In this document: one piece after another, positions 1-64,000 of the stretch
How the letters are laid out: every line of letters begins with the position of its first letter
How positions within the stretch are numbered: position 1 is the stretch's first letter
NCBI GenBank assembly: GCA_940747215.1
Contig: CALNWS010000019.1
Location: 476 to 64,475, forward strand
DNA length: 64,000 bases
DNA from: an uncultured Paraburkholderia sp.
GTDB taxonomy: Bacteria; Pseudomonadota; Gammaproteobacteria; Burkholderiales; Burkholderiaceae
Reading direction: 5' to 3'
Notes under the pieces: generated by a model
Seen by the model: only the letters and a program-made list of their open reading frames with translations
The model's database searches: none
What the model was told of the DNA's origin: nothing
Program-made: the position numbers and the translations under genes

Positions 1-681
1 GACCGTTCGCGAGCAGCGGCGGCAACTGCGGCGCCGAGCGTGTCGGTGATGCCCATCATGCGGTGGTTGCCACGGTCCCACATGTCCTGGCGCAACTGGC
101 CATCTTCGCTGAAAAGCGTATTGACGAGCCGGTGCGAACCCGTTTCCGTCGACAGAATGTATTCGCAACCCTGCGACAGCAGATGCGAGATAGCCGCGTC
201 GAGGCTGGGCGCTTCTGCGTCGCCATCGGGCTGCGCGATCGCGAGCAGCGTGGCCGAGTCGGCGACCAGCAACGTGGTTTGCGGCGCGAGCAGGTCGGCG
301 ATCCGCTTCGCGCAGTTCGTCGGCGGCGAGTACGTGTTCGTCGTCGAGCGTGAAGTCGGGCGCGAGGATGAGCGGGATGTCGTCGTAATCCGCGACCACT
401 TCGGCAATCGCGCTCACGACTTCCGCGCGCGTGCACGCGCCCACCTTGAACGCGGCGATGGGCATATCTTCGAGCAGCATGCGCGCCTGCGTGGCCACCA
501 TTTCGGGATCGAGTCCGTTGACTTAGTCGCAGGTGGCCGAGTCACGCACCGTGTAGCCGGTCAACACGGAAACGCCGTGACCCATGCTCGCAAGGGTCAT
601 CAGGTCGGCTTGCAGGCCGGAACCGCTGGTGGGATCGGAAAGGCCGAAGGTAAGGACGATCGGGGACGTGTCGCTGGGCAT
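1..681 (-). pseudogene. ThiD/PfkB-like hydroxymethylpyrimidine/phosphomethylpyrimidine kinase family gene, disrupted; its 3' end runs off the window
   Basis: The minus-strand ATG (681-679) gives MPSDTSPIVLTFGLSDPTSGSGLQADLMTLASMGHGVSVLTGYTVRDSATCD, then an in-frame TAA (complement of 523-525). The same frame continues VNGLDPEMVATQARMLLEDMPIAAFKVGA...DDEHVLAADELREA. The protein-like continuation (IADLLAPQTTLLVADSATLLAIAQPDGDAEAPSLDAAISHLLSQGCEYILSTETGSHRLVNTLF...) is only recovered in another frame, after an extra G near 303. Confidence 0.7.
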
Positions 682-1011
682 GAAAATTGTCGAAAAAGTG
701 CGTTATCTGGCGCAGTGAGTACGCAATCGGCTCAATTATGCGTCTTAAACCGCAAGCAGGGCGTTTTTTCGCGTTCGCATGCGAAGGGCCGGCGGCGGTG
801 CTGGCCGCGCGGTGTCACGGTCATGTGACAGGAATCGGATACGCTCGTCCGAACGCGCAGGCAATTGCACGCCCGAGCAATGCCGGGCAAGCTGGACGAT
901 GCCGGGCCAGCCCGATGCCCGCCGTGCGCCTTTCTGATTGCTAGGCATTGGGGCGGCAACACGGTACCATCATGGCTCCCGTTTCCACGGACACTACGAC
1001 GCGACACAAGA

Positions 1012-1182
1012 ATGGAATATCAAAGCTGGATGTGCCTCATTTGCGGCTGGATTTACGACGAAGAAACCGGTTTGCCGGACGAAGGCATTGCACCGGGCAC
1101 GCGCTGGGAAGACGTTCCCATTAATTGGGCGTGTCCCGAGTGCGGTGCGCGTAAAGAAGACTTCGAGATGGTTCAGATCTGA
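1012..1182 (+). CDS. Rubredoxin (56 aa), intact
   Basis: MEYQSWMCLICGWIYDEETGLPDEGIAPGTRWEDVPINWACPECGARKEDFEMVQI carries the two CxxCG iron-binding knuckles typical of rubredoxin. Confidence 0.93.
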   Translation: MEYQSWMCLICGWIYDEETGLPDEGIAPGTRWEDVPINWACPECGARKEDFEMVQI

Positions 1183-1438
1183 AGTCGGAACGGGCGGCGC
1201 GGCGCCGCTGCGCATAGCTGCTGGCACAGGGCGCGGCGCACCGCCCGAAGCGCCGGCAGCTGGCGCACTGGGCGCATGAGCACCGCCAGAAACGCTGCCC
1301 CCAACACATTGCGGCGGAACATCCTCGATTTCGCCGTGTCGCAAAGGTAGTCTGTTCTTGTACTGTCGCCGGTTCGCGTTAGCCGAGTAGTCTTCATGTG
1401 GCGCGAGGCGACGGCCCGTCGTCACCTGTCGCCCGCAC

Positions 1439-2788
1439 ATGAACCTTCTACCTTCCGCCCCCGATCCCTTCGATGCCTTGCCCAATGCGCGCGGCGGCGC
1501 TGTGCGTCCTGCGGAACTCGCATTAGCCGAAGCGCTGCTGGCGTTCGAGCAGCGTGGCGAGAGCTCCGCTGCGCTGCTGCGCGCGTCGCACGCGCTGCGT
1601 GCCACCGGCTGGCTGAGCGCGCAGCGTTTCGCCGACGCGCTCGTCCGTCTGTCGCCGCTTGCCTCGGGCGATCCGGCGAACGCAGGCACGGCACGGCCGG
1701 TATTCGGTGCTGCGTTGTGTGATTTCCGCGCGGCGCTCGAACGGCACAATCTGCGCGAACTGTCCTGTTCGCCCATCCTCTTCGACCACTACCGCGCGGT
1801 GTGCACGCATCTGTCGGAGCACACGCCGGGCAATACGGTCGCATTCGAAGATCTCGCGCTGGCGGCGCGTCCCGTGCCGCCGGGTGTCCGCCGGCGCGCA
1901 GCGCCGATCAGTAGGCTCATTTGCGGGCGCGTACGAGCGCGCGCTGCTGCCGGCGCTGCGCTCGCAGCCCGATAGCGGCAGCGCAGCCGTGCGCGCGGCA
2001 ACCAATGCGGCGCTCGACGAACTCGACGCTGTCCTTGCCGACCTCGCCGGTCCCGATCCGTACGACTTCTGGCGTCTCGCGAAAGCGTGCGCGAAGGCGC
2101 TGCGCGTGAGCGGACGCGCAATGGGCGGCGTCGACGGCCGGCGTTTCTATGCGCGCTGCAATCTGGCGCTCGGCGACCACACGCGCGGCATCCAGCTCGC
2201 GCCGCGCCCGCTCGTGCGCGCCACGCTGGCACTGCTGTGGCACGATTACGCGCTGTTCGGCGTCGCAGCGGAAGACGCCAATCAGGTCGACGTGCTGCGC
2301 GACTACGGCCTGACGGTCGACTGGCACGTGGCGGGCACGCAGGCGTCGGAAGTGCTGTGGGAGGCGGGCACACCGCTCAGGCGCAGTCGGTCAGCGCGAC
2401 GCATAGCTCGCTCACGCGCGAATTGGGCGTGTTGGCGGTCAACGCGCACGCATACGAAGACTTTCTGCAAACTGCCGATGCGTCGATCGCCGCGCTCACC
2501 GGCACGCACGTGCCGCGGATCAGCCGGAAAAGGCCGATCCGGGCGAGGCGCTGCAGGCCGGCGACGCTGCCTATCATCTCGGCGCGGCAGCCTGCGCGCT
2601 CGGCCTCGGCCACGTCGCGCTGCTCGCGGATGCGCTGGGTCTCGCGTGGCGTCGCCGAGCGCACGCTGGAGCAGTCCGCCGAAGCGTTGCGGGCGACGTT
2701 GCACAAAGTTGCGGCCGGCGTCGCGCAGCCCGTGAGCAGCGACGTTCTGGCCTCACTCACGCGCGCCATCGAACAGGGCGGCGCCTGA
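1439..2788 (+). pseudogene. Conserved hypothetical gene with an Hpt-like segment, heavily frameshifted
   Basis: Protein-like sequence hops between all three + frames. Frame a: 1439 to about 1900 (MNLLPSAPDPFDALPNARGG...). Frame b: about 1900-2370 (YERALLPALRSQPDSGSAAVRAATNAALDELDAVLADLAGPDPYDFWRLAKA...). Frame c: from about 2375 (AQSVSATHSSLTRELGVLAVNAHAYEDFLQTADASIAAL). A further excursion at about 2515-2645 reads EKADPGEALQAGDAAYHLGAAACALGLGHVALLADALGL (Hpt-like). It then returns to the C-terminus ...LEQSAEALRATLHKVAAGVAQPVSSDVLASLTRAIEQGGA. At least 4-5 frame changes. Confidence 0.6.
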
Positions 2789-3137
2789 GCGCGCTGCACA
2801 CGTCTGTCTGATGTATCCGCCGAAAGGGTCCTATGCATGAGTCCGCCAGATGCCCGCCGCATATATCCCCGATGCATTTGACCGCCATTTCCACCGCGCT
2901 GCCCGCAAGCACGGGCGCGTTGAAAATTGAAGGCAACGAGCGCACCGGGCGAGGCGCGCCGCGTGCGCCTCGTGGCCCCGAACGCTGCACCCTAGGCAGG
3001 GCGCGCGTGCGTGATAGAGTGCAACCTGATCCGCCGTCGGTGGCACGCGACACGCATCGGGGAACGCCCTGCAGAACACGTCGCGCTCCCACGCTCGAAG
3101 CCCGCCATCCTGCATCGTCTTTGCTAAAATCCGAACT

Positions 3138-3713
3138 ATGTCCAAGAGTACCGATCGCATTAATCTGACCAACCAGTTCCTGATCGCCATGCCGAACATG
3201 GCCGATCCGACGTTTTCGGGAACGGTGGTTTACCTTTGCGATCACAGCGAGCGCGGTGCGCTCGGCCTCGTCATCAACCGGCCGACCGATATCGATCTGG
3301 AAGCGCTCTTCAGTCGCATCGACCTCACGCTCGAGATCGAACCCCTTCTCCACGTTCCCGTTTATTTCGGCGGTCCGGTGCAAACCGAGTGCGGCTTCGT
3401 GCTGCACGATCCGAAAGGCGGCGGCTACACGTCTTCCATGTCGGTGCCGGGCGGCCTCGAAATGACCACGTCGAAAGACGTGCTCGAAGCGGTGGCCAGC
3501 GGCAACGGTCCCGAACGTTTCCTGCTCACGCTTGGCCATGCCGGCTGGGGCGCGGGTCAGCTCGAAGAGGAAATCTCGAAGAACGGCTGGCTCACGGTGG
3601 AAGCCGACCCGAAAATCGTCTTCGACGTGCCCGCCGAGGAACGCCTCGAGGCAGCGCTCGCACTGCTTGGCATCAATCTCTCGATGCTGTCGGGCGAGGC
3701 GGGCCACGCATGA
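3138..3713 (+). CDS. yqgE: YqgE/AlgH family protein (UPF0301), intact
   Basis: 191-aa ORF: [49 protein letters not shown]...[17 protein letters not shown], the characteristic family signature. Its stop overlaps the ruvX start (ATGA). Confidence 0.9.
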
Positions 3714-4150
3714 ATCTCGCGGCCGGACGTGAGGCGACGCTGCTTACGTTCGACTACGGAGAAAAACGCATCGGCGTGGCGGTCGGCAATTCGCTCACGC
3801 GCAGCGCGCGGCCGCTCGTCATCGTGCAGAACCGCAGTCGCGAATATCGCTTCGAGGCGGTCGGCAAGCTGATCGCCGAGTGGAAGCCGAATGCGTTGAT
3901 CGTCGGCTTGCCCATGCATCCCGATGGCACGCCGCACGAAATGACCCAGCTTGCGAAACGCTTCGGCAATCAGCTGAATGGCCGCTTCAATCTGCCCGTT
4001 ACGTGGATCGACGAACGCTATTCGTCGGTCGAGGCGAAAGCGGAAATCCGCGCCGGCAACGGCCGCGCCGACATGCTCGACGCCGAAGCCGCCAGCATAA
4101 TCCTCCAGCAATATCTAGACGGACTTTCCGACGATCATGAGCTCCATTGA
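3710..4150 (+). CDS. ruvX: Putative pre-16S rRNA nuclease / Holliday junction resolvase-like YqgF (RuvX), intact
   Basis: [39 protein letters not shown]...[15 protein letters not shown]...[14 protein letters not shown]. Canonical yqgE-yqgF pairing. Confidence 0.9.
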
Positions 4151-4692
4151 CGCCGAAGCGCTTTATCGCGCGTTGCTCGACCAGATTCGCGCGGTGTACG
4201 GCGACCAGCTCGGTGCCGGGCCGAACGGTGCCGAAGGCGCGGTGCTCGCCGGCATTTACAGCAGCGGCGCGTGGCTCGCCGAGCGGTCTCGCCCATGACC
4301 TGAACCTGCCGAGCTTCGGTGTGGTGAACGTGGCGCTGCATCGCGACGACTACGCGAAAAAAGGCCTGCATTCGCAGGCGAGCTCGACCTCGCTGCCGTT
4401 TTCCGTGGACAAGCGCCGCATCGTGCTGGTGGACGACGTGCTGTACACCGGCCGCACGATCCGCGCGGCGCTGAACGAACTGTAAGACTATGGCCGGCCG
4501 GCTTCGGTCGAACTCGCCGTGCTCGCCGATCGCGGCGGCCGCGAGTTGCCGGTGGCGGCGCGCTTCGTAGGCGGTGTGGTAGAGGTTCCCGCCGATTCAA
4601 CGCTTGTGCTTGCCCGCCAGGACGACAGCGCGCAAGGCGACGCAAAAGGCGCCCCGCGTTTCACCTTTCATACCGGGGCACGCGTCGATTGA
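4137..4692 (+). pseudogene. pyrR: pyrR (bifunctional pyrimidine operon regulator / uracil phosphoribosyltransferase), disrupted
   Basis: [22 protein letters not shown]...GIYSSGAWLAER loses its frame at an extra T near 4287. The continuation LAHDLNLPSFGVVNVALHRDDYAKKGL...VLVDDVLYTGRTIRAALNEL lies in the next frame. An in-frame TAA at 4483-4485 follows, where homologs have Tyr (NEL*DYGRPASVELAVLADRGGRELP...). Confidence 0.85.
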
Positions 4693-4851
4693 AGACGCGC
4701 TCCGGTCTGCACGATCGTGAGCCGTCAGCATCGGGTCGCGCCGCGCGTGCAACTGCGTACGAGCCGCCGCGATCCGCAATACCGAAGTCCGTCACACGCA
4801 GTGCGCATCGACACCGATTACGTTGAAGCCCGTTTCTGAAGCAGGTAAATC

Positions 4852-5876
4852 ATGAACACCGCCACCCAGCAGGCCCCTAGGATTCCGCCGACAGCGCCAC
4901 CGAGCGCTTCCGTTATGGCTTCCTAAAGGGCAACCCGCAGTTCACGAAGAATGGCGAGCTCAAACATCTGTTGTCGATCGAAGGGTTGCCTAAGTCGATC
5001 GTCAATCACATTATCGATACCGCTGAGCAGTTCGTCAGCGTGATCGATCGTGAAGTGAAGAAGGTGTCGCTGCTGCGCGGCAAGTCGGTGTTCAACCTCT
5101 TCTTCGAGAACTCCACGCGTACGCGCACCACGTTCGAAATCGCGGCGACGCGTCTGTCGGCGGACGTGCTGAACCTGAACATCAACGCTTCTTCCACGAG
5201 CAAGGGCGAGTCGCTGCTCGACACGATCAATAATCTGTCGGCGATGCACGCGGACCTTTTCGTCGTGCGCCATGCGTCGAGCGGCGCGCCGTATCTGATC
5301 GCCCAGTATTGTGCGCCGCACGTGCACGTGATCAATGCGGGCGACGGGCGTCACGCGCACCCCACGCAGGGGCTGCTCGACGTGTACACGATCCGCCACT
5401 ACAAGAAAGATTTCACGAATCTGCGCGTGGCGATCGTCGGCGACATTCTGCATTCGCGCGTCGCACGTTCCGACATTCACGCGCTCACCACGCTCGGCGT
5501 GCCGGAAGTGCGCACGGTCGGTCCGCGCACGCTTGCTGCTAGGCGGTTTCGAACAGATGGGCGTGCGCGTGCACAATCTCGACGAAGGCCTGAAGGACGT
5601 CGACGTGATCATCAGCTGCGTCTGCAGAACGAGTGGATGAGCGGCGCATTGCTGCCTTCGGTGCAGAAATACTTCAAGAGCTGGGGTTTGACGCCAGAGC
5701 GGCTCGCGCTCGCGAAACCCGACGCGATCGTGATGCACCCCGGTCCGATGAATCGCGGTGTCGAAATCGACTCGCAGGTGGCCGACGGTCCGCAGTCGGT
5801 GATCCTGAATCAGGTGACGTTCGGCATCGCGGTGCGCATGGCGGTGATGGGCATCGGCGTCGGCAATCACGACTGA
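4852..5876 (+). pseudogene. pyrB: pyrB (aspartate carbamoyltransferase catalytic chain), disrupted
   Basis: The body frame reads ...[44 protein letters not shown]...[13 protein letters not shown]...HPTQGLLD.... The upstream ATG (4852) is in a different frame, and the body frame has a TAG at 4878-4880. Internally, a +1 shift near 5531-5535 and a -1 shift near 5614-5616 put about 28 codons out of frame. The correct peptide [27 protein letters not shown] is only seen in the neighbouring frame. The ORF stays open (301 aa) but is scrambled. Confidence 0.8.
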
Positions 5877-5992
5877 TCGCACCGAACACCAGACACATGG
5901 AACGAAGCCGCAGGATAGCACGCGGCACCCGGCAGAACACACTAGTTGAACACCGCGTTGACATAGCGGTTGACACTTACTTAAGGCAGCGT

Positions 5993-7262
5993 ATGAAGAT
6001 TCATATTCAAGGTGGCACGCTGATCGATCCGGCAGCGGGCACCAAACAGCAGCAGGACGTTTTTATCGCGGCGGGCAAGATCGTCGCCATCGGCGAGGCA
6101 CCGGCCGAGTTTCACATGGCGAAGACCATCGACGCGCGCGGCTTGTACGTCGCGCCCGGTCTCGTCGATCTTTCTGCACGTCTGCGCGAACCGGGCTACG
6201 AACATAAGGTCACGCTCGAATCGGAAATGGCGGCGGCGCTCGCGGGCGGCGTGACGAGCCTCGTGTGTCCGCCGGACACCGACCCGACGCTCGACGAACC
6301 CGGTCTCGTCGAAATGCTCAAGTTCCGCGCGCGCAATCTGAACCAGGCGCACGTGTATCCGATCGGCACGCTGACCGTCGGGCTGAAAGGGCAGATCATC
6401 ACCGAGATGGTCGAGTTGACCGAAGCCGGTTGTATCGGCTTCTCGCAGGCCGACGTGTCGGTGGTCGACACGCAGGTTCTGCTGCGCGCGTTGCAGTACG
6501 CGAAGACGTACGGCTTCACGGTGTAGCTCCGTCCTGTGGACGCCTATCTCGGCAAGGGCGGCAAGCGGCGCGCTGGCGTCGCGGCTCGGCTTGTCGGGCG
6601 TGCCGGTGTCGGCGGAAACCATCGCGTTGCACACCATTTTCGAACCTGGTGCGCGTGACGGGCGCCCGCGTGCACCTGTCGCACGTGTCGTCGGCGGCGG
6701 GCATCGCGCTGATGCGCGCGGCCAAGGCCGAGGGCTTGCCGGTGTCGTGCGACGTCACCGTCAATCACGTGCATCTGATCGATCTCGACATCGGCTATTT
6801 CGACGCGCAATTCCGCCTCGATCCGCCGCTGCGTCAACAGCGCGATCGCGAAGCGATCCTCGCAGGTCTCGTGGACAGCACGATCGACGCAATCTGCTCC
6901 GACCACACGTCCGTCGACGACGAAAAGCTGCTGCCATTCGCCGAAGCTACACCGGGCGCAACCGGCCTCGAGCTGTTCCTGTCGCTCACCGTGAAATGGG
7001 CCGACGAAGCCGGCGTGCCGTTCGCCAAGGCGCTGAACCGCATCACCGCGTCGCCGGCCGAAGTGCTCGAGCTGGAAGCGGCGGGGCGCGTCGCCGTGGG
7101 CGGCGTGGCCGACCTGTGCGTGTTCGACCGCAACACGCACTGGCGCGTCGAGCCGCGTGCGCTGAAGAGCCAGGGCACAACACGCCGTTCCTCGGCTACG
7201 AATTGCTGGCACGCGTGCGGGTGACCATTGTGTCCGGTCACGTCGCGTTTGAGCAGCGCTGA
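5993..7262 (+). pseudogene. pyrC: Dihydroorotase-like gene (pyrC'/pyrX-type partner of pyrB), disrupted
   Basis: MKIHIQGGTLIDPAAGTKQQQDVFIAAGKIVAIG...ALQYAKTYGFTV is followed by an in-frame TAG at 6524-6526 (a Trp position; V*LRP). Frame changes follow near 6560, near 6645 (ttcgaaCctggtg) and near 7178. The pieces ASGALASRLGLSGVPVSAETIALHTIFE, VRVTGARVHLSHVSSAAGIALMRAAKAEGLPVSCDVTVNH... and HTPFLGYELLARVRVTIVSGHVAFEQR lie in three frames. Confidence 0.8.
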
Positions 7263-7301
7263 TCGTCGCGCGGCATTGGCTAGTTACGGAAAGCTCCAAC
7301 C

Positions 7302-8008
7302 ATGAAGCTCGCGTTACGCAAGGCTCGTCTCGTACTTCATCTGCTGCACGGCATGTGGATCGTTGCCATGCGCTTCCCGAAGGCAGGCGCGGACGTTCGT
7401 CGCACGCTCAACCGCGAATGGTCGCTGAAAATGCTGCGCCTGTGCGGCATGCGTCTTGTCGTACACAATGACAGCGCGCGGCTCGATCGCGGCACACTCA
7501 CACTGGTAGTCGCCAATCACATCTCGTGGATCGACATCTACGTGATCAACACGTGGCGGCCTACGCCGTTCGTCTCAAAGGCGGAGATCCGCCAGTGGCC
7601 GATCGTCGGCTGGCAGGCACGACGTCGAACGGACTCGCCGTGCTGCCGTTTCGCGCGAACATGTTCCAGGCGGCGGTGTCGGCATCCGTGCCGGTGCAGC
7701 CGCTTTACATCATGTACGAAGACGCGCAGGGCCGGCAGTCCACGGCGCCTGCCTATATCGACGATCTCTCGCTCGCCGATTCGCTGAACCTGCTGCTGGG
7801 CAGCGGTCCGTTGACGGCGCACGTGTATGTCGGCGCGCCGCTTGCGCCGGGCGCGGACCGGCGCACGCTGGCGGCAGAAGCGGAAGGGGTAATTGCCGCC
7901 GCGTTGCGCAAGATGCAGGTCGGCGCGGCGCGTGCTGGCACGGTATTCGTGGAGCGGCCGGAGACGCTATCGGCGCCCGGCGCAATGGTGGAGCCGCCGG
8001 TGGATTAA
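7302..8008 (+). pseudogene. 1-acyl-sn-glycerol-3-phosphate acyltransferase-like (PlsC family) gene with an out-of-frame internal deletion
   Basis: The N-terminal part (…LVVANHISWIDIYVINTWRPTPFVSKAEIRQWPIVGW) carries the HxxxxD-type block. Near 7613-7620 the sequence jumps directly, in another frame, to GTTSNGLAVLPFRANMFQAAVSASVPVQPLYIMYED.... The roughly 40 aa normally lying between the FVxK...P.xG block and the (P)EGTTS block appear to be missing. Confidence 0.65.
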
Positions 8009-8082
8009 CCGCCGGGGCATTCGGCGTAGTTCGCTCGTCGCCTCAAGGAGCGTGAGCCACGCTTTCCTGAAATAACCGCGCG

Positions 8083-11564: not shown

Positions 11565-11574
11565 AGGCACGGCA

Positions 11575-13004: not shown

Positions 13005-13015
13005 GGGGCCGCTGC

Positions 13016-15616: not shown

Positions 15617-15617
15617 G

Positions 15618-50874: not shown

Positions 50875-50879
50875 TGGTA

Positions 50880-54796: not shown

Positions 54797-55135
54797 AAGC
54801 CACCCTTTACGGGCTGCCCCACATCGTGAACACCGATCAAGGCCGCCAGTTCACGGCGGGCGTTTTCACCGAGGCTGTGCTGCGCCGGGACATCCGTCTT
54901 TCGATGGATGGCAGGGGATGCTGGCGCGACAACGTGTTCGTCGGGCGGGTGTGGCACAGCATCAAGTACGAGGAGTGTTACCTGAAGGCCTACGGGTTCT
55001 GTCAGCCATGCCCGACGCTCCATCGCCGAATACATCGGACTGTACAACCGGAAACGGCCCCATTCCAGCCTGGCAGACCGGATGCCGGATGAGGCATACT
55101 TCGCAACGCTGCCTGCGATCAGATCGGCAGCATGA
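54797..55135 (+). mobile_element. IS3-family transposase (OrfB, rve integrase core) 3' remnant, frameshifted
   Basis: ...LYGLPHIVNTDQGRQFTAGVFTEAVLRRDIRLSMDGRGCWRDNVFVGRVWHSIKYEECYLKAYG matches the DDE-integrase block of IS3-family OrfB. After a frameshift near 54995 it reads ...ARRSIAEYIGLYNRKRPHSSLADRMPDEAYFATLPAIRSAA*. There is no OrfA, no N-terminal half and no recognisable inverted repeats. Confidence 0.8.
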
Positions 55136-55508
55136 TCGCCCCGGCCGCTCCACTGATCCGGCTATCCAAATTCCCGCGACCACTTCTGCGTCACCCAACG
55201 CGACACGGTGAGGAAGTTCGTGATCCCCCGGTAAACTTTTCTAAAGATTGATGACTCTCGCAACCTTTGCTGAATAAAGGAGCGGTTCAGCTGATCAACA
55301 GGGTTCGCGCGGGTACTTCCTCGAGCCTTGCGTCGTCTCGACAAAGAAGAAAAAAGCTTGATAGAAATGCGATTAAAAATTTTGGTCCGTCATGCAAGGC
55401 TGACGGCGACGCTTTCTGGTCAGCGATGAGAAACGCGCCTGACGCTTGGCTCATTGCTCTCGTGGCAGTATTGAAATCGGATCGCTCTGGCATCGACAGT
55501 GAGGCGTG

Positions 55509-56106
55509 CTAAGTGGAAAGGTCGGTGGACGGAGTCGCGTCAACGGTTAGTTCTAAACCCGCGAGATGCCGACACAGTGTCCTTGGATGGACGCCGTAAT
55601 TCGCGGCGACTTTACGTGCGCTCCATCCGTCGTTCTGCAATTGCATCGCCTCCTGACACTGGATTGATGTGAGCGACGGTTGACGCCCGAGTCGCTTCCC
55701 GCCAAACCGTGCTGCGGCCATGCCTGCGCGTGTGCGTTCGCTGATCAACGTTCGCTCAAATTCGGCAAGCGCGGCCATCAGATGAAAAATCAAGCGTCCG
55801 CCCGATGACGTCGTGTCGATGTTTTCATTCAGTGAGCGATTGAAAGCGAATTTCACGTCTGCCGAGTTGCTCAAGCAATGTGACCAGATGAACGAGCGAA
55901 CGACCTAGACGGTCAAGTCGCCAGACCACAAGTTTTCCATCCGGTTTGAGCCGGCGCAGTGCTCGTTCCAGGCCGGGTCGGGAAGCCTGCGCGCTGGAGA
56001 CTCCATGATCGGTATAAATCCGGACACATCCGGCAAGCTTGAGGGCATTTATCTGTAAAGCTAGGCTCTGCTCTTCGGTAGAAACGGGTGCGTATCCGAT
56101 GATCAA
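55509..56106 (-). pseudogene. Small serine recombinase (resolvase/invertase family), disrupted
   Basis: MIIGYAPVSTEEQSLALQINALKLAGCVRIYTDHGVS...VVWRLDRLGRSLVHLVTLLEQLGRREIRFQSLTE is followed by a TGA created by a 4-bp tandem duplication (TGAA TGAA; plus-strand TTCATTCA at 55824-55831). It continues NIDTTSSGGRLIFHLMAALAEFERTLISERTRAG... plus a C-terminal HTH (SARKVAANYGVHPRTLCRHL). It also has Pro in place of the conserved Arg in GYARVS. Confidence 0.8.
55824..55831 (-). repeat. 4-bp tandem duplication (TGAA x2 on the coding strand) causing the frameshift and stop in recombinase 1
   Basis: Read directly. Removing one TGAA restores ...SLTENIDTTSSGGR, which parallels ...SITEHIDTHSSGGR in the paralog. 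Confidence 0.85.
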
Positions 56107-56526
56107 GGCACACTCCTTATTTCAAGAAGGTTGCATCAACTTTCAAGGCAAGAGGGCCGGTGATTTGCATGGGAGCGGCGACCCGCGCAACCTGGCGAGT
56201 GGTCCCATGCATAACCGATGAATCTGTGATTTTAATTGCGTCTTCTAAAAAAACGGACGCGTTGCTTCGCCTGATGGTCTGATCAGTGCGCTTTTCGCTT
56301 ATTTTTTTCGTATCGCAGCTAAGATTGAATAGTTGTCGCATAGCACACATCGTGTGCGTTGGCGGACGCCTGTGTTCCGCCTGGCTCCCGTCTCGTGACG
56401 GGATCTAACTAGAGGACGGCGGTGCGACGATGATGCTCGTCAGAGCACCCGTGCCTAACATTCATGTCACGCGCTGGTTGACCTTTTAGGGTCGTCGAAG
56501 CGCGCGCTCGTTCGTCAACGCCGCAT

Positions 56527-57150
56527 TCACGGAACGTCCTTGGTTGTTGACCGCGCTTCATGCTTGAGCTCATTCAGACGGGTCAATCCGCGAAGCAGCG
56601 TTCGTCGATGGACGCCGTACTCTGCCGCAATCTCCCTGGCGCTCACCGTCCCACTGGTCAATCGATGCTCGGCGTCGCGCAGTTGTACAATGACAATGGA
56701 GAGCAACGGCTGACGACCTCTATCTGGCGCCCGGACACCCGGGCCGCCGCAATACCGGCTTTCGTGCGCTCGCTTTTCGTGCGCTCGCTGATCAGAGTCC
56801 GTTCGAATTCCGCGAGTGCCGCCCATCATATGGAACACGAGGCGCCCACCTGAGGAGTGCGTATCGATATGTTCAGTAATCGAGTGAAAGCCGACCTGCC
56901 TGCGGCCAAGTGTCTCCATCAAACGAACCAGGTGCACCAGTGACCGACCCAGACGGTCAAGCCGCCAGACCACAAGTGTGTCTCCGGCTTTCAATCGTGC
57001 CAGCGCGCGGTCGAGACCAGGCCGTGAACTGACGCTGCCGGATACGCCGTGATCCGTATAAATCTTCTCGCAACCGCTTCGCGTTAAGGCCTGAGTCTGC
57101 AGGTCGACATTCTGATCTCCGGTGGAGACGCGGGCATATCCAATCATCAT
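56527..57150 (-). pseudogene. Second small serine recombinase (paralog of 55509-56106), disrupted
   Basis: MMIGYARVSTGDQNVDLQTQALTRSGCEKIYTDHGVSGS...VVWRLDRLGRSLVHLVRLMETLGRRQVGFHSITEHIDTHSSGGRLVFHMM is followed by an extra G. AALAEFERTLISERTKSERTKAGIAAARV lies in the +1 frame and includes a 15-bp duplication. It returns to the original frame for ...LRDAEHRLTSGTVSAREIAAEYGVHRRTLLRGL (HTH). Confidence 0.8.
56760..56789 (-). repeat. 15-bp tandem duplication (plus strand TTTCGTGCGCTCGCT x2) inside recombinase 2, encoding SERTK-SERTK
   Basis: Read directly from the sequence. Confidence 0.9.
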
Positions 57151-57261
57151 TTTAAGAACCAACAAAAAGGCAGATGTCGCGTGCACATTCAAGCGTCTGA
57201 GTCCGCAACGGTTGCGGCATGGAGCGCGTGTAATGCCAGCCACACCGTTTATTGACAAAAG

Positions 57262-58045
57262 TGGTCACATCGCAAAGCTGAGAATCGACACGAGCGCCGC
57301 GGCCTCGCGCGGCTCGAAGCCCTGCACGTCGCGCAGCTAGGCACCGACCCACAGCGATTGCATCGCGTAAAAGACACCTTGCGTGACCACCGCGAACGAC
57401 CCCATCTTCCAGAACGCGAGGCTTCGCAGAATCTGCAGCGTGCCCTTGAACTGCGCCGCGATGCTCTCCTAGTCGCGAACGTCGTCTGCGTCGGGCGCAA
57501 TCGTCCACTGCGCAAACGCTACCAGCACCTTGAAAATGCCGAGGCCAACGCACACCGTCCGCCAGCTTTCGAAGCCCAGCATCCACGTGAGCGACGAGCC
57601 GACCACCACGCCGCCGAAGCCGCCCATCGCCATGACGAGACCGTTCATCAGCGGCAGGCGCGCCGCCGCAAAATGCTGCGTCAGCGCCTTGAACGCGCCG
57701 CCGAGACACACGGAGACACCAACGCCGATCAGGAGCCGCCCCACCATCATCGCGCCGACGCCATTCGCCGCGCCGAACACCCAGATGCCGAGCGCCGCGA
57801 ACAGCAACATCGCCGCGGTTACACGGCGCGGGCCGTAGTGGTCGAGCAGAACGCCCGCCGGAATCTGCGCGCCGGCGAAGCCGAGAAAATAGAGACTCGT
57901 CAGCAAACCGAGATCGGCGGCCGACAAACCTAGGTCGTGCGTGATGAACGGCGCGAAGCCGAGATTCACGCCTCTAAAGGAAGAGATACGAGACGAAATA
58001 GCACGCCGAAAACAGCAGGAATACACGCAGTTGGGTGGGCGACAT
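57262..58045 (-). pseudogene. MFS transporter, 3'-truncated with a frameshift and two in-frame TAG codons
   Basis: ATG 58045: MSPTQLRVFLLFSACYFVSYLF, then a frameshift. Then RGVNLGFAPFITHDLGLSAADLGLLTSLYFLGFAGAQIPAGVLLDHYGPRR (MFS motif A region) ...APDADDVRD, then TAG (57469-71). Then ESIAAQFKGTLQILRSLAFWKMGSFAVVTQGVFYAMQSLWVGA, then TAG (57337-39, a Trp position). Then LRDVQGFEPREAAALVSILSFAM. The homology ends near 57262, with only about 6 of 12 TM segments present. Confidence 0.7.
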
Positions 58046-58170
58046 ACGCTTTCTGATGGAGAGCTGCTCAGGTCAAGGCCAAGGTCCACACGATAAAGGA
58101 AATGCACTAGGCTTGCGCATGAACCCTTCTCGCAAACAACGGTGCTGCGAGACAAAACGAACGCACCAAT

Positions 58171-58202
58171 GAAAAACGCCGTCACCCTGAGGTGACGGCG
58201 TT
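58171..58202 (-). terminator. Rho-independent terminator downstream of mltD
   Basis: On the minus strand: AACGCCGTCACC-tcag-GGTGACGGCGTT followed by TTTTTC. It lies about 87 nt after the mltD stop. Confidence 0.72.
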
Positions 58203-58288
58203 GAAGAAACACGGTGCGTGACCGGAGCGCAATTCATGCGCTGCCCCCGCAGCGCATGGGGTCACTACCGTGGAAAGTCGCTTTTGGT

Positions 58289-59986
58289 CTACTTACCCTT
58301 CTTCGCGTTGGCTGCGGTCTTCGGGCGGCCTTCAGCCGCAGCCTTCAACGCCTTGCCGGACGTGGATGCTACCACCTTCGTCACTTTGCCTTTGCTGGCA
58401 GTCGACGCAGTCGGCTTGCTGATCTTGCCCACCGGTTCCGCTACCTTGACAACCGGCGAGTGGCCACGACCCTTTTTCTTATCGTAGCGCGATTCGCTGC
58501 GCGTGTCCGCTACGCGGGTACCGACGATCTTCTGGACGCCGCCGCCTTGCACGTCGGTGGCGAGGCGCTCCGGACCCGGCTCGCTCGGCATGGCTTTGCC
58601 GACCGGCACGTGCAGCACGACCACCTGACCGCGCGAAACCTGATCGTGGCACGTACGGTTCCAGGCCTTCAACTGACCGACCGACACGCCGTAGCGCCCG
58701 GCGATCGCTGCCATGGACTGATTGCGGCGCACGCGAATCAGCATCTTGCGGGTGTCGGGGACGTCTGGCTCCATGGCCAGCACCGCGCTTTCGGCGACGT
58801 CGGCGCTGATGTCCTCGTCGTCGTCCGAACCGCGCGGCACGACGATCGTGGAACCCGGCTTCAGAAGCATGCCGACCGGAATCTTGTTCACTTCCATCAG
58901 CGTGTCGGCGTCCACGCCGATTTTCTGCGCGATTGCCGCGGGCGTGGCGCGCTGGTCGACCGTGTACGTGGTCCACGACGACAGCGAACCCGAATACGCC
59001 TTCAGGTTGCGCTCGAACGCGCTGGCGTTGTCGAACGGAAGCAGGATCTGCGGCTGCGTGGCGCCGAGAATCACCGGTTTGCGGAACGACGGGTTCAGCG
59101 AACGGAACTCCTCGGTCGAGAGGTTCGCGAGCTTGGTCGCCATGTCCACGTCGATGTCGTGCGACATGGTGACCGTGACGAAGTACGGGTGATTCGGAAT
59201 GGTGGGCAGCGTGAGCCCGTACATTTGCGGGTTCATCACGATGTTCTTCACCGCCTGCAGCTTCGGCACGTAGTTGCGCGTCTCGTTCGGCATGCGCAGG
59301 CTGAGGTAATCGGTCGGCAGCCCGGCAGCTTCGTTACGCGCGATCGCGCGCTGCACATTGCCCTCGCCCCAGTTGTATGCGGCGAGCGCGAGCTGCCAGT
59401 CGCCGAACATGTCGTGCAGACGCAAGAGGTAATCGAGCGCGGCACTGGTGGAAGCCAACACATCGCGGCGCTCATCCTGCCACATGTTCTGCTTGAGGTT
59501 GTAGGTGCGGCCCGTGCCCGGCATGAACTGCCACATGCCGGCAGCCTTCGAGACGGACAACGCCTGCGGGCTGTACGCCGATTCGATGAACGGCAGGAGC
59601 GCGAGCTCAGTCGGCATGTTGCGCGCCTCGAGTTCCTCGACGATGTGGTACAGGTACTTCTGCGAGCGCTCGGTCATGCGCTGGACATAGTCCGGACGCT
59701 GCGCGTACCAGTTCACCTGTATGTCGACGAGGTCGGTCTGCAGGTCGGGCATCTGGAAATCACGACGAATACGGCCCCACAGATCGGCGTCGGCACTGGT
59801 CAGTTGCGTGACCGAACCCTGGTCGACGTTGATCGTTTCCTTGGCGGTGGCTGTCTTGCGAAGGGCGTCAGCGACGGCTTGCTGACTGGCGGGATTGGTT
59901 GCGGTGGTGGGGCTATTCGTTGTCGGTCCCTGGCTCGCGCAAGCGGCGAGTGTCAGGACCAGCAACGCACTAAAGATAAATCTCAT
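58289..59986 (-). CDS. mltD: Membrane-bound lytic murein transglycosylase D (lipoprotein with LysM repeats)
   Basis: MRFIFSALLVLTLAACAS (lipobox) ...LPFIESAYSPQALSVSKAAGMWQFMPGTG (SLT catalytic E-S motif) ...AAYNWGEGNV.... Two LysM-like segments (ATPAAIAQKIGVDADTLMEVN; QSMAAIAGRYGVSVGQLKAWN) and a Lys-rich tail. Confidence 0.9.
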   Translation of the reverse strand: MRFIFSALLVLTLAACASQGPTTNSPTTATNPASQQAVADALRKTATAKETINVDQGSVTQLTSADADLWGRIRRDFQMPDLQTDLVDIQVNWYAQRPDYVQRMTERSQKYLYHIVEELEARNMPTELALLPFIESAYSPQALSVSKAAGMWQFMPGTGRTYNLKQNMWQDERRDVLASTSAALDYLLRLHDMFGDWQLALAAYNWGEGNVQRAIARNEAAGLPTDYLSLRMPNETRNYVPKLQAVKNIVMNPQMYGLTLPTIPNHPYFVTVTMSHDIDVDMATKLANLSTEEFRSLNPSFRKPVILGATQPQILLPFDNASAFERNLKAYSGSLSSWTTYTVDQRATPAAIAQKIGVDADTLMEVNKIPVGMLLKPGSTIVVPRGSDDDEDISADVAESAVLAMEPDVPDTRKMLIRVRRNQSMAAIAGRYGVSVGQLKAWNRTCHDQVSRGQVVVLHVPVGKAMPSEPGPERLATDVQGGGVQKIVGTRVADTRSESRYDKKKGRGHSPVVKVAEPVGKISKPTASTASKGKVTKVVASTSGKALKAAAEGRPKTAANAKKGK

Positions 59987-60142
59987 GAACGTCTCGGCTT
60001 CCACAAGGGCTGGAATTTGCAGCCGATAGTACGAAACGGCGACGTTTACGTCAATCGGAAAGTAACGAAAAAATCAAGCAAATCTTAGGATTGGCGAATT
60101 TTTCCGATTTACTGGATGAGCAATGCCCGCAGCATTTTCCGC

Positions 60143-60940
60143 TTAACGGAAGCGGTTTTTCCATTCCCGCATGAGCGTAAAGGCGGCTAAACGGTCAGGC
60201 ACCGCTTCGTGCAATTGCTCGCGCAACGTGGCCTGAACCGCGGCTTCGTCCGCACGCAGGAACGGGTTCACCGCGCGTTCGTGAGCAATCGTGGTGGGCA
60301 GCGTCGGCACGTTGCGCTCGCGCAGTTCGGTGGCCTTGTCGCGCCATGCCTGCAACTCCGCGTTATCCGGCTCGCAGGCAAGCGCGAAGCGGATGTTCGA
60401 GAGCGTGTACTCGTGCGCGCAGTGCACCTCGGTGTTGCCGGGCAGCGCGGCGAGCGCGTCGAGCGAGGCCAGCATCTGCTTCGGCGTGCCTTCGAAGAGC
60501 CGGCCGCAGCCGCAGGCGAAAAGCGTGTCGCCGCAAAAAACGTGGGGCGTGCCTTGCGGGTCGGCCGCCTGAAAATAGGCGATGTGACCGCTCGTGTGAC
60601 CGGGCACGTCGAGCACGCTAAACTCGAGAGCAGGTGCAGCAATTTTCACGTGATCGCCATTTTCGAGACGCTGTGTGAGATACTCGATTGCCTCACCGGC
60701 GGGGCCGTACACGGGCACGGCTTGGCCTTTTAGCAGATCGGCCACCCCACCGACGTGGTCTTGATGGTGGTGCGTGAGTAAAATAGCGCTCAGCCGCCAA
60801 CCCCGTTTCGCGAGATACGCACACACAGGGGCGGCCTCGCCCGGATCGACGGCAACCACGTCCACGTGGTGTCCGTCGGAAACGACCCAGATGTAATTGT
60901 CATCAAACGCCGGGACTGGTACGTACTCGAGCGCATTCAT
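60143..60940 (-). CDS. gloB: Hydroxyacylglutathione hydrolase (glyoxalase II)
   Basis: MNALEYVPVPAFDDNYIWVV...LLTHHHQDHVGG...PGHTSGHIAY...GDTLFACGCGRLFEGT...CAHEYT. Confidence 0.92.
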   Translation of the reverse strand: MNALEYVPVPAFDDNYIWVVSDGHHVDVVAVDPGEAAPVCAYLAKRGWRLSAILLTHHHQDHVGGVADLLKGQAVPVYGPAGEAIEYLTQRLENGDHVKIAAPALEFSVLDVPGHTSGHIAYFQAADPQGTPHVFCGDTLFACGCGRLFEGTPKQMLASLDALAALPGNTEVHCAHEYTLSNIRFALACEPDNAELQAWRDKATELRERNVPTLPTTIAHERAVNPFLRADEAAVQATLREQLHEAVPDRLAAFTLMREWKNRFR

Positions 60941-60959
60941 AGGCGACGCATTCTTTGGT

Positions 60960-61880
60960 ATGACTGACCGAGCGATTATAGACTGGCCCACCTGGACCGA
61001 CTCGCCACCCGGCCGATACGTGCTCGAGTGGGAGCAGACCCAGCTCGACCGCGTGGTGTCCGACGTGTTCGGCTACCACGCGCTGCAGCTCGGCCTGCCT
61101 CAGCTCGACGCCCTGCGTGAAAACCGCATGCCGTGCCGTGGCCTCGTGCTCGACGCGGCGAGCGGCGCGAGCGCGCCCTACGCTTTTCCACGCGCCGGCG
61201 GTAAGGCTGGCAACGGCAATGGAAGGGAAAACGATAACGGACTCGTCGGCAGCGCCGCCGTTGGCCGCGCGCTCAACGGCGGTGCGGCCAACGGCGCTTC
61301 GTCGCCCGCTACCGTTTCCGGTTCGCCCGCACCGGCCGGACGCAGCGCGGTCTGGTGTGATCTGCTCGACCTGCCGTTCGAAGCGCAGAGCGTCGACCTG
61401 ATCGTGATGCCGCACACACTCGAATTCACGAGCGACCCGCACCGTCTGCTGCGCGAAGCCGAACGCATGCTGATGCCGGAAGGTCAGTTGATCATTCTCG
61501 GCTTCAATTCGCTCTCGCTGTGGGGCGCGCGGCAGTCGGTCGGCAAGATGACCGGGCGGCCGTTCGTGCCGTCCGCCGTCGATCTGATCGCCTTCACGCG
61601 TCTGAAAGACTGGATCAAGCTGCTCGGTTTCGACCTTGAACGCGGACGCTTCGGCTGCTATCGTCCGCCGCTCGGCAGCGACCAGTGGCTCTCGCGCTAC
61701 GGCTTCATGGAAGCCGCCGGCGACCGCTGGTGGCCGACCTTCGGCGCGACTTACATGGTCAAGGCGATCAAGCGCGTGCGCAGCATGCGGCTCGTCGGCC
61801 CGCTGAAAGTGAAGAAACCTGTCCTCGCCGCGGGCCTCGCGCCCGCCGCCACTCCGAATACTCGCAACCACACTCAATGA
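60960..61880 (+). CDS. SAM-dependent methyltransferase (YafS-like gene in the gloB-rnhA position) with a low-complexity insertion
   Basis: 306 aa. ...[23 protein letters not shown]..., ...[46 protein letters not shown].... A Gly/Asn/Ala/Ser-rich stretch of about 50 aa ([48 protein letters not shown]) is encoded at about 61190-61340. Confidence 0.78.
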
Positions 61881-62323
61881 CCACCGACACCATCGACATT
61901 TACACCGACGGCGCCTGCAAGGGCAATCCCGGCCTAGGCGGCTGGGGCGCGCTGCTGCGCTTCGGCGCCCAGGAAAAGGAACTGTTCGGCGGCGAAGCCA
62001 ACACCACCAACAACCGCATGGAACTGATGGGCGTGATCGCCGCGCTCGAAGCATTGAAGCGCCCCTGCAAGGCCGTCGTGCACACCGACTCGCAATACGT
62101 CCAGAAAGGCATCAGCGAGTGGATTCACGGCTGGAAGAAAAAAGGCTGGATCACGGCGGCCAAACAGCCCGTGAAGAACGCCGATCTGTGGAAGCGGCTC
62201 GACGCGCTCGTCGCCCAGCATCAGATCGAATGGCGCTGGGTGCGCGGGCATAATGGCCACCCGGAAAACGAACGGGCCGACCAGTTGGCCGATCGCGGCG
62301 TCGCGTCGCTCGCGGAAATCTGA
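61877..62323 (+). CDS. rnhA: Ribonuclease HI
   Basis: [22 protein letters not shown]...[16 protein letters not shown]...VHTDSQYV...[20 protein letters not shown]. Confidence 0.93.
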
Positions 62324-62434
62324 TGCGAGCGACGTCGCTGCCAGTCGCAATCATGAGCGTGGTGATGCCCGTCAAGCAGAACACGCAAGCACCCTTCACT
62401 TCCGCAGTCATTTTCTGAAGCAGAGTACCCCGAC

Positions 62435-63169
62435 ATGCGTCAACTGATTCTCGACACCGAAACCACCGGCCTGAATGCCCGCACCGGCGACCGCATTCTC
62501 GAACTCGGTTGCGTCGAACTGGTGAACCGCCGGCTTACCGGCAACAACCTGCATTTCTACATCAACCCCGAGCGCGACAGCGATCCGGGCGCGCTCGCCG
62601 TTCACGGCCTGACCACGGAATTTCTGAGCGACAAGCCGAAGTTCGCCGAGATCGCCGACCAGTTTCGCGACTTCATCGAAGGCGCCGACCTGATCATCCA
62701 CAACGCGCCGTTCGACATCGGCTTTCTCGACTCCGAGTTCGCGTTGCTCGGCTTGCCGCCGGTAAGTAACTATTGTGGCGAAATCATCGACACGCTCGCG
62801 CGCGCGAAGCAGATGTTCCCCGGCAAGCGCAATTCGCTCGACGCGCTGTGCGACCGCTTCGGCATCAGCAACGCGCACCGTACGCTGCACGGTGCGCTGC
62901 TCGACTCGGAATTGCTCGCCGAGGTTTATCTGTCGATGACGCGCGGCCAGGAAAGCCTCGTCATCGCCATGCTCGGCGAATCGCATGGCGGCGGCGATGC
63001 GCACGCGCCGCGCGTCGCGCTCGGTTCGCTCGAACTCGTCGTGATTGCCGTGAGCGACGAAGAGAACGCCGCGCATCAGGCGGTGCTAGACGGTCTCGAT
63101 AAGGCGATCAAAGGCACGAGTGTCTGGCGCACGGAACCCGCGCCCGCCGCGGATGAGCAAACCGCTTAA
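62435..63169 (+). CDS. dnaQ: DNA polymerase III epsilon subunit (3'-5' proofreading exonuclease)
   Basis: MRQLILDTETTGL (ExoI) ...IIHNAPFDIGFL (ExoII) ...HGALLDSELLAEVYL (ExoIII). 244 aa, intact. Confidence 0.93.
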   Translation: MRQLILDTETTGLNARTGDRILELGCVELVNRRLTGNNLHFYINPERDSDPGALAVHGLTTEFLSDKPKFAEIADQFRDFIEGADLIIHNAPFDIGFLDSEFALLGLPPVSNYCGEIIDTLARAKQMFPGKRNSLDALCDRFGISNAHRTLHGALLDSELLAEVYLSMTRGQESLVIAMLGESHGGGDAHAPRVALGSLELVVIAVSDEENAAHQAVLDGLDKAIKGTSVWRTEPAPAADEQTA

Positions 63170-63216
63170 AAAGTACTGGACGCCTCGAAAATCCCTGACA
63201 TAATTCGGCTCTCTTC

Positions 63217-63291
63217 GGGTGGTTAGCTCAGCGGTAAAGCACTGCCTTCACACGGCAGGGGTCACTGGTTCGATCCCAGTACTGCCCACCA
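63217..63291 (+). tRNA. tRNA-Val (anticodon CAC)
   Basis: A 75-nt cloverleaf read by hand. Acceptor GGGTGGT/ACTGCCC with two adjacent G-U wobbles. D arm GCTC..AAGC with a C-A mismatch. Anticodon stem CTGCC/GGCAG with loop TTCACAC. T arm ACTGG-TTCGATC-CCAGT. Encoded CCA. Confidence 0.88.
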
Positions 63292-63320
63292 GAATTTTGG
63301 TGTGTCGATCACCGAAGACA

Positions 63321-63360
63321 AAAGGGCTCACGCAGTGATGCGTGAGCCCTTTTCCATTTT
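63321..63360 (+). terminator. Rho-independent terminator after tRNA-Val
   Basis: AAAGGGCTCACGCA-gtga-TGCGTGAGCCCTTT followed by TCCATTTT. Confidence 0.72.
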
Positions 63361-63823
63361 GGCTTCTTCTGTTCCGCGCTGTTCGATCTACGCTGTTTCG
63401 GCCTCGCGTTCAGGCAGGCACACCGACATCGCCGTCAACTGCGAAACTTCGTACAATTGCAGCGGCTATACGCCGCTGATATAGTGGGCGCTCGGGCATT
63501 CGCCCCGTCCATTTTCTCTCCAACTTTTTCGACCTATAGGGAGGCGTCACATGTTCACCATGCACATTGCTTACCTTGGTATGGTCGCGCGATCGATTTT
63601 CCGACCTTGACTTCGCAGTACTAACGTTAGTCACCGCCGTAGCGCGAATGAGCGCCCAGCAAAATCGTCGCTCTAGTGGTCCCGCCTTCAGGGGCGTTCC
63701 ACACAAAATCTCAGGCAGTCCCAGCTCTTCATGTCAGTGCGCTCGTCGCACTGCGTCGATTGTCTGTTCCTCTCGCTTCTGACTGGAACCCCGGTACGTG
63801 CATGCGTCGCCGGGTCATGGCAA

Positions 63824-64000
63824 ATGACCAGAAAAACTCGACTTTCGCGGGCAATCCTTCAAGGACGTCCTCGGCTTCACTTTCCGGCACTGGGCTGAGC
63901 AGCCTTGGCGCGTCATCGTCATCATCGTGCTGGCGCTGCTCTCCGCGCTCGCCGATGTGCTCACGCCGATGTTCGCGGGCCGTCTCGTCGACGCTATCGC
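63824..64000 (+). pseudogene. ABC exporter (fused TMD-NBD type) 5' end, partial at the window edge, apparent frameshift after codon 4
   Basis: The conserved N-terminal/TM1 sequence (LDFRGQSFKDVLGFTFRHWAEQPWRVIVIIVLALLSALADVLTPMFAGRLVDAI) is in a frame with no start codon after its upstream TGA. ATG 63824 (MTRK) is in the -1 frame and joins it if the A5 run (63832-36) is shortened by one A. This could also be a homopolymer sequencing error. Confidence 0.45.

Follow-up and report, generated by a model that had tools for sequence, protein, structure and literature searches.

What process would leave about 21 of 57 neighboring genes broken by frameshifts, nonsense codons and deletions, interleaved with 35–36 genes that are intact? 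The question is raised by a 64,000-nucleotide stretch of an uncultured Paraburkholderia (contig CALNWS010000019.1), which was analyzed over its whole length and is called the window below. A preliminary description, made from the letters alone, had counted about 21 broken genes among about 36 uninterrupted ones and had proposed the reductive evolution of a host-restricted symbiont of the Burkholderia group, a leaf symbiont being one of the options. Comparison with orthologues and with Pfam families bore out the count, and the proposal is supported by the identity of the organism and by its published genome erosion. Early-stage reductive genome evolution in Candidatus Paraburkholderia dryadicola is, in our view, a highly probable explanation of the window.

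As a chromosomal contig, the window belongs to Candidatus Paraburkholderia dryadicola, a leaf endophyte of Vangueria known only in the uncultured state. The MltD protein encoded in it was 100% identical to CAH2808840.1 and CAH2926872.1, two proteins from metagenome-assembled genomes (MAGs) of uncultured Paraburkholderia sp. at NCBI. The 835-aa open reading frame (ORF) corresponded exactly to the deposited protein CPDRYMAC_2689, and six more ORFs matched deposited proteins exactly, with two accessions apiece. Tags of the CPDRYDRY type (e.g., CPDRYDRY_6570) were used for Ca. P. dryadicola by Danneels et al. (bioRxiv 10.1101/2022.09.27.509721), and the source was assigned to this organism because the exact protein matches carry CPDRYMAC, a prefix agreeing with CPDRYDRY. 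According to the same work, Ca. P. dryadicola is uncultivated and was detected in the leaves of two Vangueria species. Its two MAGs, from Vangueria dryadum and V. macrocalyx, share an average nucleotide identity (ANI) above 99.9%, and its ANI to any described species is below 83% (0.83 to P. phenoliruptrix endophytes). The data consisted of Illumina NovaSeq 2x150 leaf metagenome reads assembled with SPAdes --careful (ENA PRJEB52430; 10.1101/2022.09.27.509721). In agreement with the published ANI, the blocks of the window collinear with P. aspalathi, P. phenoliruptrix and Paraburkholderia sp. EB58 showed 78–86% nucleotide identity, and ApaH was 80–85% identical to the ApaH of Paraburkholderia species.

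The state of each gene was read by comparison with relatives. Positions 3–18,896 were collinear with P. aspalathi LMG 27731 (locus L002; 80–86% nucleotide identity), 15.5–38.9 kb with locus L082, 36–50.4 kb with the P. rhynchosiae locus L084 and 58.35–64 kb with the P. phenoliruptrix locus L081. For 1–19 kb the references were L002, P. phenoliruptrix L003, Paraburkholderia sp. EB58 L004 and a MAG (L001). Each P. aspalathi gene was aligned to the window and to up to three further free-living relatives, and tblastn served to delimit the frame segments. Gene families were assigned with Pfam and NCBIfam, X-masked translations being scanned where the DNA has internal stops. A GC3 frame plot had been tried as a frameshift detector; many of the changes that it flagged were ordinary gene boundaries, and it was replaced by the orthologue comparison.

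Seven genes in the first 10 kb carried lesions specific to the window; in the thiD-like gene, pyrR, pyrB, pyrC' and olsA, two to three references were intact. The leftmost is a thiD-like gene of the phosphomethylpyrimidine kinase family (1–687, minus strand, extending past the left window edge), with a +1 insertion at 304 and a GAA to TAA substitution at 525, where two of two references were intact; its L002 orthologue matched Pfam Phos_pyr_kin and the NCBIfam HMP-P kinase. The gene of a conserved 484-aa protein (1380–2803, plus strand) showed seven frameshifting events, all of them window-specific (−1 at 1421, +1 at 1882, −2 at 1902, −1 at 1931, +2 at 2373, −1 at 2501 and −62 at 2668), and its tblastn match was split across three frames. 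No Pfam or NCBIfam family matched this gene, and the label "Hpt-like" given to it in the preliminary description found no support in either collection. Three consecutive pyrimidine genes follow on the plus strand. The regulator gene pyrR (4137–4689) had a +1 insertion at 4285 and a TAC to TAA substitution at 4483; two insertions of 12 nt were also seen in it, at 4217 and 4622. In the aspartate carbamoyltransferase gene pyrB (4852–5876), the native start was lost through a +2 insertion at 4870 and a TAG at 4878, and further on a shift of +1 at 5532, reversed by −1 at 5614, scrambled 27 codons. The dihydroorotase-like gene pyrC' (5993–7259), the product of which is, in this bacterial group, the structural partner of the transcarbamoylase, fell into four frame segments in the tblastn match, with a TGG to TAG substitution at 6524, a deletion of 8 nt at 6560, a +1 at 6645 and a −1 at 7172. 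An acyltransferase gene of the olsA/plsC family (7290–8008, plus strand), whose orthologue matched the NCBIfam lyso-ornithine lipid O-acyltransferase, had lost 118 nt at 7614, within the acyltransferase domain; a tandem duplication of CACACT was visible at 7493. The last of the seven is an NAD-dependent sugar epimerase/dehydratase gene, previously labeled "rmd-like" (9062–10095, plus strand), with a CAA to TAA substitution at 9698, where three of three references read CAG, and a +2 insertion at 10041. Where the window was broken, all or nearly all references were intact, and the alignment to free-living orthologues confirmed the lesions that had been noticed in the preliminary description as real differences of this lineage.

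Are these lesions true features of the genome, or are they consensus or assembly errors in genes that are in fact intact? The sequence is a MAG, most lesions are indels of 1–2 nt, and the pairwise dN/dS is not clearly higher in the broken genes, as would suit such errors. The distribution of the lesions speaks for the contrary, as errors would ignore gene boundaries. The intact set comprised 35 genes (12,887 codons, about 38.7 kb) which aligned with their orthologues from end to end in a single frame and without internal stop; coding sequence free of lesions had rightly been reported before, at a lower estimate of about 33 kb. In the partition test, these 35 genes were set against the eight broken genes that have close references and carry 32 lesions. 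All 32 lesions fell within the eight genes, that is within 18% of the codons (chi-square test of homogeneity, p = 2e-17), and in none of 200,000 length-weighted multinomial allocations did 35 genes stay free of lesions, the maximum being 30. The intact ruvX, moreover, overlaps the broken pyrR by a few bases. The types of lesion also fit poorly with errors: nonsense substitutions were seen five times, stretches of 8, 62 and 118 nt were deleted, and small tandem duplications occurred. Of 16 small indels, only about 2 were located in a homopolymer run of at least three. Indel errors are low with Illumina NovaSeq reads and SPAdes --careful, and the authors' own pipeline found many pseudogenes in this organism (10.1101/2022.09.27.509721). 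Errors of consensus or assembly are thus a most improbable source of the lesions, and the earlier argument that random sequencing error would not partition in this way holds. Programmed frameshifting or recoding was considered and rejected, in view of the many lesions per gene, their mixed kinds and the large deletions.

The same counts bear on the genes that survive. At the lesion density of the broken genes, about 3.8 per kb, a neutral gene of 1 kb would be expected to stay intact about 2% of the time, so that the intact set as a whole must be protected by selection. The earlier statement that the survivors reveal where selection still acts is reasonable for the set as a whole and is no proof for a single gene. 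Compensated double frameshifts, moreover, can be hidden in an ORF, as in pyrB and in one resolvase. Three such compensating pairs were seen, in pyrB (5532–5614), in resolvase 1 (56724–56825) and in the gene of the methyl-accepting chemotaxis protein (MCP; 49981–50005), and they restore the frame after 8–40 scrambled codons. As they keep long ORFs open, ORF length alone would score damaged genes as intact and would understate the decay.

The deposited proteins provided a second view of the partition. In an exact look-up, eight of eight intact ORFs were found among the deposited proteins and none of 14 fragment or doubtful ORFs (10 pseudogene fragments and four doubtful ORFs; Fisher p = 3e-6), the latter count depending in part on guessed start codons. 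The 301-aa ORF of pyrB was among those absent from the deposited proteins. Pseudogenes were flagged by TFASTY in the pipeline of Danneels et al. (10.1101/2022.09.27.509721), and the missing fragments suggest that the genes in question were treated as pseudogenes by the depositors; it does not follow that the lesions are shared between the two MAGs. For the intact ORFs, the two accessions apiece indicate proteins identical in both MAGs, eight proteins amounting to 3,982 aa. This observation bears on another possibility, namely that the contig is the consensus of a mixed endophyte population in which some lesions would be polymorphic or chimeric. The sample is a leaf metagenome and the endophyte infects more than one host species, which would make room for such a mixture. 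However, the eight identical proteins come from the MAGs of two host species, and together with the ANI above 99.9% they point to a very homogeneous population, so that a mixed consensus seems hardly credible.

How old are the pseudogenes? A three-taxon count of nonsynonymous and synonymous changes by branch, more sensitive than pairwise dN/dS, gave a ratio of 0.31 for the broken genes on the window branch, compared to 0.11 (p = 4e-5) and 0.19 (p = 0.02) for the same genes on the free-living branches. When L004 was taken as the third taxon, the ratio of the broken genes did not differ from that on the L004 branch. The intact genes of the 1–19 kb region showed 0.21–0.26 on the window branch, compared to 0.09–0.19 on the free-living branches. 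A comparison of dN/dS between intact and broken genes had been proposed in the preliminary description; on the window branch, broken genes (0.31) and intact genes (0.26) do not differ from each other. The neutral ratio, by our own estimate, is about 2.8, and the intact genes lie far below it. The value of 0.31 in the broken genes is also far under neutrality, from which their time as pseudogenes would cover no more than a few percent of the branch. This suggests that the pseudogenes in the window are very young, and the raised ratio in the intact genes hints at a mild weakening of selection over the whole genome, intact genes included.

These observations can be put together in the following model of early-stage reduction in Ca. 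P. dryadicola. Confinement of the bacterium to the plant would have relaxed selection on the genes that are dispensable in the leaf. Such genes would then gain frameshifting indels, nonsense substitutions and deletions at a roughly neutral rate, while in the genes that are needed the lesions would be purged by selection and the genes would stay intact. The lost functions comprise de novo pyrimidine synthesis and its regulator (pyrR, pyrB and pyrC'), the thiD-like kinase, the ornithine-lipid acyltransferase and the chemoreceptor, as well as the cluster of copper oxidase, SCO1 and cytochrome c, transporters and mobile-element genes. Those kept comprise nearly the whole O-antigen/glycan locus, apaH, ruvX, yqgE, mltD, gloB, rnhA and dnaQ, so that housekeeping genes of the cell wall and of replication are among them.

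Several points weigh against this model. Pairwise dN/dS was barely raised in the broken genes (0.116 compared to 0.096 in the intact genes), and with values so nearly equal the case for decay rests mainly on the disabling lesions. The window branch showed no extra AT bias, the ratio of GC>AT to AT>GC changes being 2.45 compared to 3.4 on the P. aspalathi branch. No intact or proliferating copies of insertion sequences (IS) were present in the 64-kb window. The lesions were read from one assembled contig alone, and the look-up of deposited proteins includes one miss, that of a GT2 (glycosyltransferase) gene, which is best explained by a different start. The ratio of indels to substitutions in the pseudogenes, roughly estimated at 1:4, seems high for bacteria. 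Lastly, a Zn-dependent alcohol dehydrogenase (ADH) gene that is damaged in the window corresponds in L082 (13758–14054) and L083 (7358–7654) to a 98-aa remnant in which N- and C-terminal pieces are fused, the window copy being longer though damaged. The decay of this gene had thus begun outside the symbiosis, to which some of the decayed genes in the window owe nothing. The signs of advanced reduction, AT drift and compaction, were not seen: the G+C content of the window is 57–66%, and the pseudogene DNA is still present. Young pseudogenes, slightly weakened selection and the lack of extra AT drift characterize reduction at a very early stage.

The ADH gene lies within a surface-glycan locus of about 38 kb which is almost fully preserved, far more so than the frame plot had indicated. 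Its first half (10503–28000, plus strand) gave full-length, single-frame matches to L002 and L082 without stops, and contains rmlBACD, manC, wzm, wzt, a CoA-ligase-like gene, five glycosyltransferase/epimerase genes, an EamA fragment and the gene of the 835-aa DUF7657 protein. Four products of this half are deposited identically in both MAGs. An apparent N-terminal defect of the GT2 gene at 23.9 kb was rejected, the annotation of the relative being over-extended. The second half (36021–48522) likewise gave full-length, single-frame matches, to L082 and L084, and encodes glycosyltransferases of 345, 914, 718 and 320 aa, an epimerase, two WecA-like transferases and a 627-aa WbiI-like dehydratase. 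Between the halves, four intact genes (31377–34902, plus strand; 329, 340, 196 and 296 aa) matched L082 over their full length with 82–87% identity and no stops. Small insertions are frequent in the window, and not in broken genes alone: an in-frame insertion was seen in the intact rmlD, at 13759, and another in the intact methyltransferase gene of the right-hand block, at about 61240; their sizes are 12 and 48 nt, respectively.

Two methyltransferase genes and the ADH gene, at 28.2–30.9 kb on the minus strand, are the damaged ones in this locus. Of a 386-aa methyltransferase, only residues 28–227 of the L082 orthologue were left, in two frames (28239–28834). The ADH gene (28973–29964) is probably degenerate: its 315-aa ORF is open and ADH_N is complete, but the N-terminal 30 codons are in a different frame compared to L082, and ADH_zinc_N lacks profile positions 1–29, part of the Rossmann domain being gone. 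With no good reference at hand, this call is uncertain. A pseudogene of the Methyltransf_24 family (30042–30926) showed 47% identity to a 318-aa orthologue in L082 and contained four in-frame stops. Further on, a class-I S-adenosylmethionine (SAM) methyltransferase ORF (35228–36076, minus strand) is of uncertain state, as no more of Methyltransf_11 than the C-terminal half was matched; it was not found among the deposited proteins in the exact look-up. It lies within 1.1 kb (34903–36020) that L082 and L084 lack, and this segment may be an insertion or a lineage-specific gene, perhaps truncated. Of the three methyltransferases and the ADH previously listed as broken in the locus, two methyltransferases are therefore confirmed, and the class-I methyltransferase and the ADH stay uncertain.

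To the right of the glycan locus, the MCP pseudogene (48828–50480, plus strand) carried at least eight indels: −1 at 48837, +4 at 49125, −2 at 49981, −1 at 50005, +1 at 50314 and three more insertions at the 3' end. The +4 at 49125 is a tandem duplication of AACT. Flagella are absent in Ca. P. dryadicola (10.1101/2022.09.27.509721), and the loss of the MCP is consistent with this. At about 50.4 kb synteny breaks down, and up to about 58.3 kb the space between two collinear blocks is taken up by 8 kb of accessory genes and mobile-element genes in decay, most of them on the minus strand. A cytochrome c pseudogene with a CVNCH motif (50414–50871, minus) changed frame between 50605 and 50536, as read from the sequence itself and not against a reference orthologue. 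The galactose-oxidase-like pseudogene next to it (50873–52101, minus; Ricin-Kelch-E-set) had Ricin and Kelch in one frame and GO-like_E_set in another. It spans about 380 aa, and members of the family measure about 650 aa. A 36-nt inverted repeat within this gene (50895–50930/51089–51124; 81% complementary, with a spacer of 158 nt) is probably due to chance, and the repeat search of 50.3–58.4 kb found nothing beyond this weak inverted repeat. In the SCO1/SenC pseudogene (52241–52778, minus), profile positions 5–84 of 134 of SCO1-SenC were followed by a stop, the C-terminal part being in another frame. Of two tandem alpha/beta-hydrolase genes (53181–54757, minus), the upstream copy was frameshifted near 54600. 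The downstream copy (53181–54014), a 278-aa ORF with a plausible ribosome-binding site and an N-terminus matching Hydrolase_4 and Peptidase_S15, may be intact amid the run of pseudogenes.

The mobile elements of the window are all found at this synteny break. They consist of one IS3-family transposase remnant of about 350 nt (54808–55154, plus), which matches Pfam rve_3 and whose nucleotide identity to IS3 transposase genes of Burkholderia, at their 3' ends, is 86–88%, and of two tandem, decayed serine-recombinase (resolvase) pseudogenes (55512–57150, minus), in which the Pfam Resolvase domain is distributed over different frames. The frame of copy 2 changes at profile position 97 or thereabouts, copy 1 has two compensating shifts (56724–56825), and each shows about 69% identity to recombinase genes carried by Burkholderia plasmids. 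The last gene of the run is a pseudogene of the major facilitator superfamily (MFS; 57244–58212, minus), which covers positions 13–259 of 347 of the MFS_1 profile, contains three in-frame stops and is shortened by the resolvase.

Such a region could suggest that the decay is a local affair, in which an accessory or mobile region has degraded within an ordinary free-living Paraburkholderia. The 50.4–58.3 kb segment, where accessory genes and the remains of mobile elements lie at a synteny break, has this appearance, and one glycan-locus gene, the ADH, is a remnant in free-living relatives too. However, the core genes pyrR, pyrB, pyrC', thiD-like and olsA are broken inside a conserved syntenic block, and a low coding capacity over the whole genome, with erosion nearing that of the Psychotria symbionts, was published for this organism (10.1101/2022.09.27.509721). 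A purely local decay accordingly has very little to recommend it, and reduction of the genome as a whole, at an early stage, is preferred.

Some further features were noticed around the break. In P. phenoliruptrix L081 (12282–16861), mltD is followed by carA and carB, and in P. rhynchosiae L084 (15604 onward) the MCP gene is followed by a UbiA-family gene. In one of the MAGs the other genes have accessions of the series CAH27905xx-6xx, to which that of MltD, CAH2808840, does not belong; a contig break of the sister assembly within 50.4–58.3 kb is suggested by this.

Beyond the break lies a housekeeping block (58292–63291) made of mltD, gloB, a methyltransferase gene, rnhA, dnaQ and the tRNA-Val gene (63217–63291), the sole RNA gene of the window. 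It is collinear with L081 at 86–92% amino acid identity and without lesions. MltD, identical in both MAGs, measures 571 aa, which corrects the 565 aa given to this ORF previously. In P. phenoliruptrix a phage-type integrase gene is located between dnaQ/tRNA and the ATP-binding cassette (ABC) exporter gene (L081 5698–6690); none was seen at 63166–63830 of the window. The ABC exporter gene itself (63822–64000, plus, extending past the right window edge) had a disrupted start, with a deletion of 2 nt in codon 3, in an A-run, compared to L081, and its native frame stops after 24 codons. On the left side of the window, intact genes stand among the broken ones: yqgE/algH and ruvX (3138–4147, plus) were full-length, with 94–96% amino acid identity to L002 and neither frameshift nor stop, and both MAGs include YqgE among their deposited proteins. 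The apaH gene (8086–8970, minus) reached 338.8 bits with its NCBIfam equivalog and matched L002 over its full length.

The genome erosion of Ca. P. dryadicola is already published, and in this respect the finding is already known. Danneels et al. described the same organism, with an abundance of frameshift and null mutations, a low coding capacity and no flagella, and gave genome-wide statistics with a focus on cyclitol metabolism (10.1101/2022.09.27.509721). Their paper makes no mention of pyrimidine genes, of the O-antigen locus or of chemotaxis. According to its introduction, pseudogenes and mobile elements build up in the first stage of genome reduction, before DNA is deleted. Among other known systems, Burkholderia/Caballeronia kirkii and relatives resemble the window as pseudogene-rich plant-leaf symbionts of the Burkholderia group. 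The leaf symbionts of the kirkii group have a G+C content of 59–64% and a coding capacity of 40–83%, and some of them devote as much as about 10% of the genome to IS (10.1101/2022.09.27.509721). They differ in belonging to another genus-level clade, Caballeronia, in living in leaf nodules and in being IS-rich in some cases, whereas the window holds a single IS3 remnant. Other recently host-restricted and pseudogene-rich bacteria, which share this first stage of reduction, include the Sodalis-allied insect symbionts, Mycobacterium leprae and Burkholderia gladioli Lv-StB of Lagria beetles. Compared with these, the host here is a plant, the pseudogenes are suggested to be very young, and AT drift is absent.

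As a discovery the window carries little weight, its pattern being that which textbooks give for the first stage in the reduction of symbiont genomes; it is rather a worked example in which gene-by-gene decay was correctly recognized, and the lifestyle guessed, from raw sequence alone. Three local details are absent from the published paper: the young pseudogenes, the broken pyrimidine genes and the preserved glycan locus. Whether the pattern of kept and lost genes reflects biology that has gone unreported is a tentative proposal, which we hold to be somewhat doubtful. Because pyrR, pyrB and pyrC' are all broken, the bacterium could be a pyrimidine auxotroph fed by the plant. The retention of the glycan locus despite the loss of its methyltransferase and dehydrogenase genes would, if true, mean that the surface glycan is needed in the leaf in a simplified form. 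Pseudogenes formed in the last few percent of the history of the lineage would place the restriction to the host in very recent times. Modest leads thus exist for a symbiosis that has been little studied: a possible need for pyrimidines from the host, a glycan locus that is selectively kept, and pseudogenes of apparently very young age.

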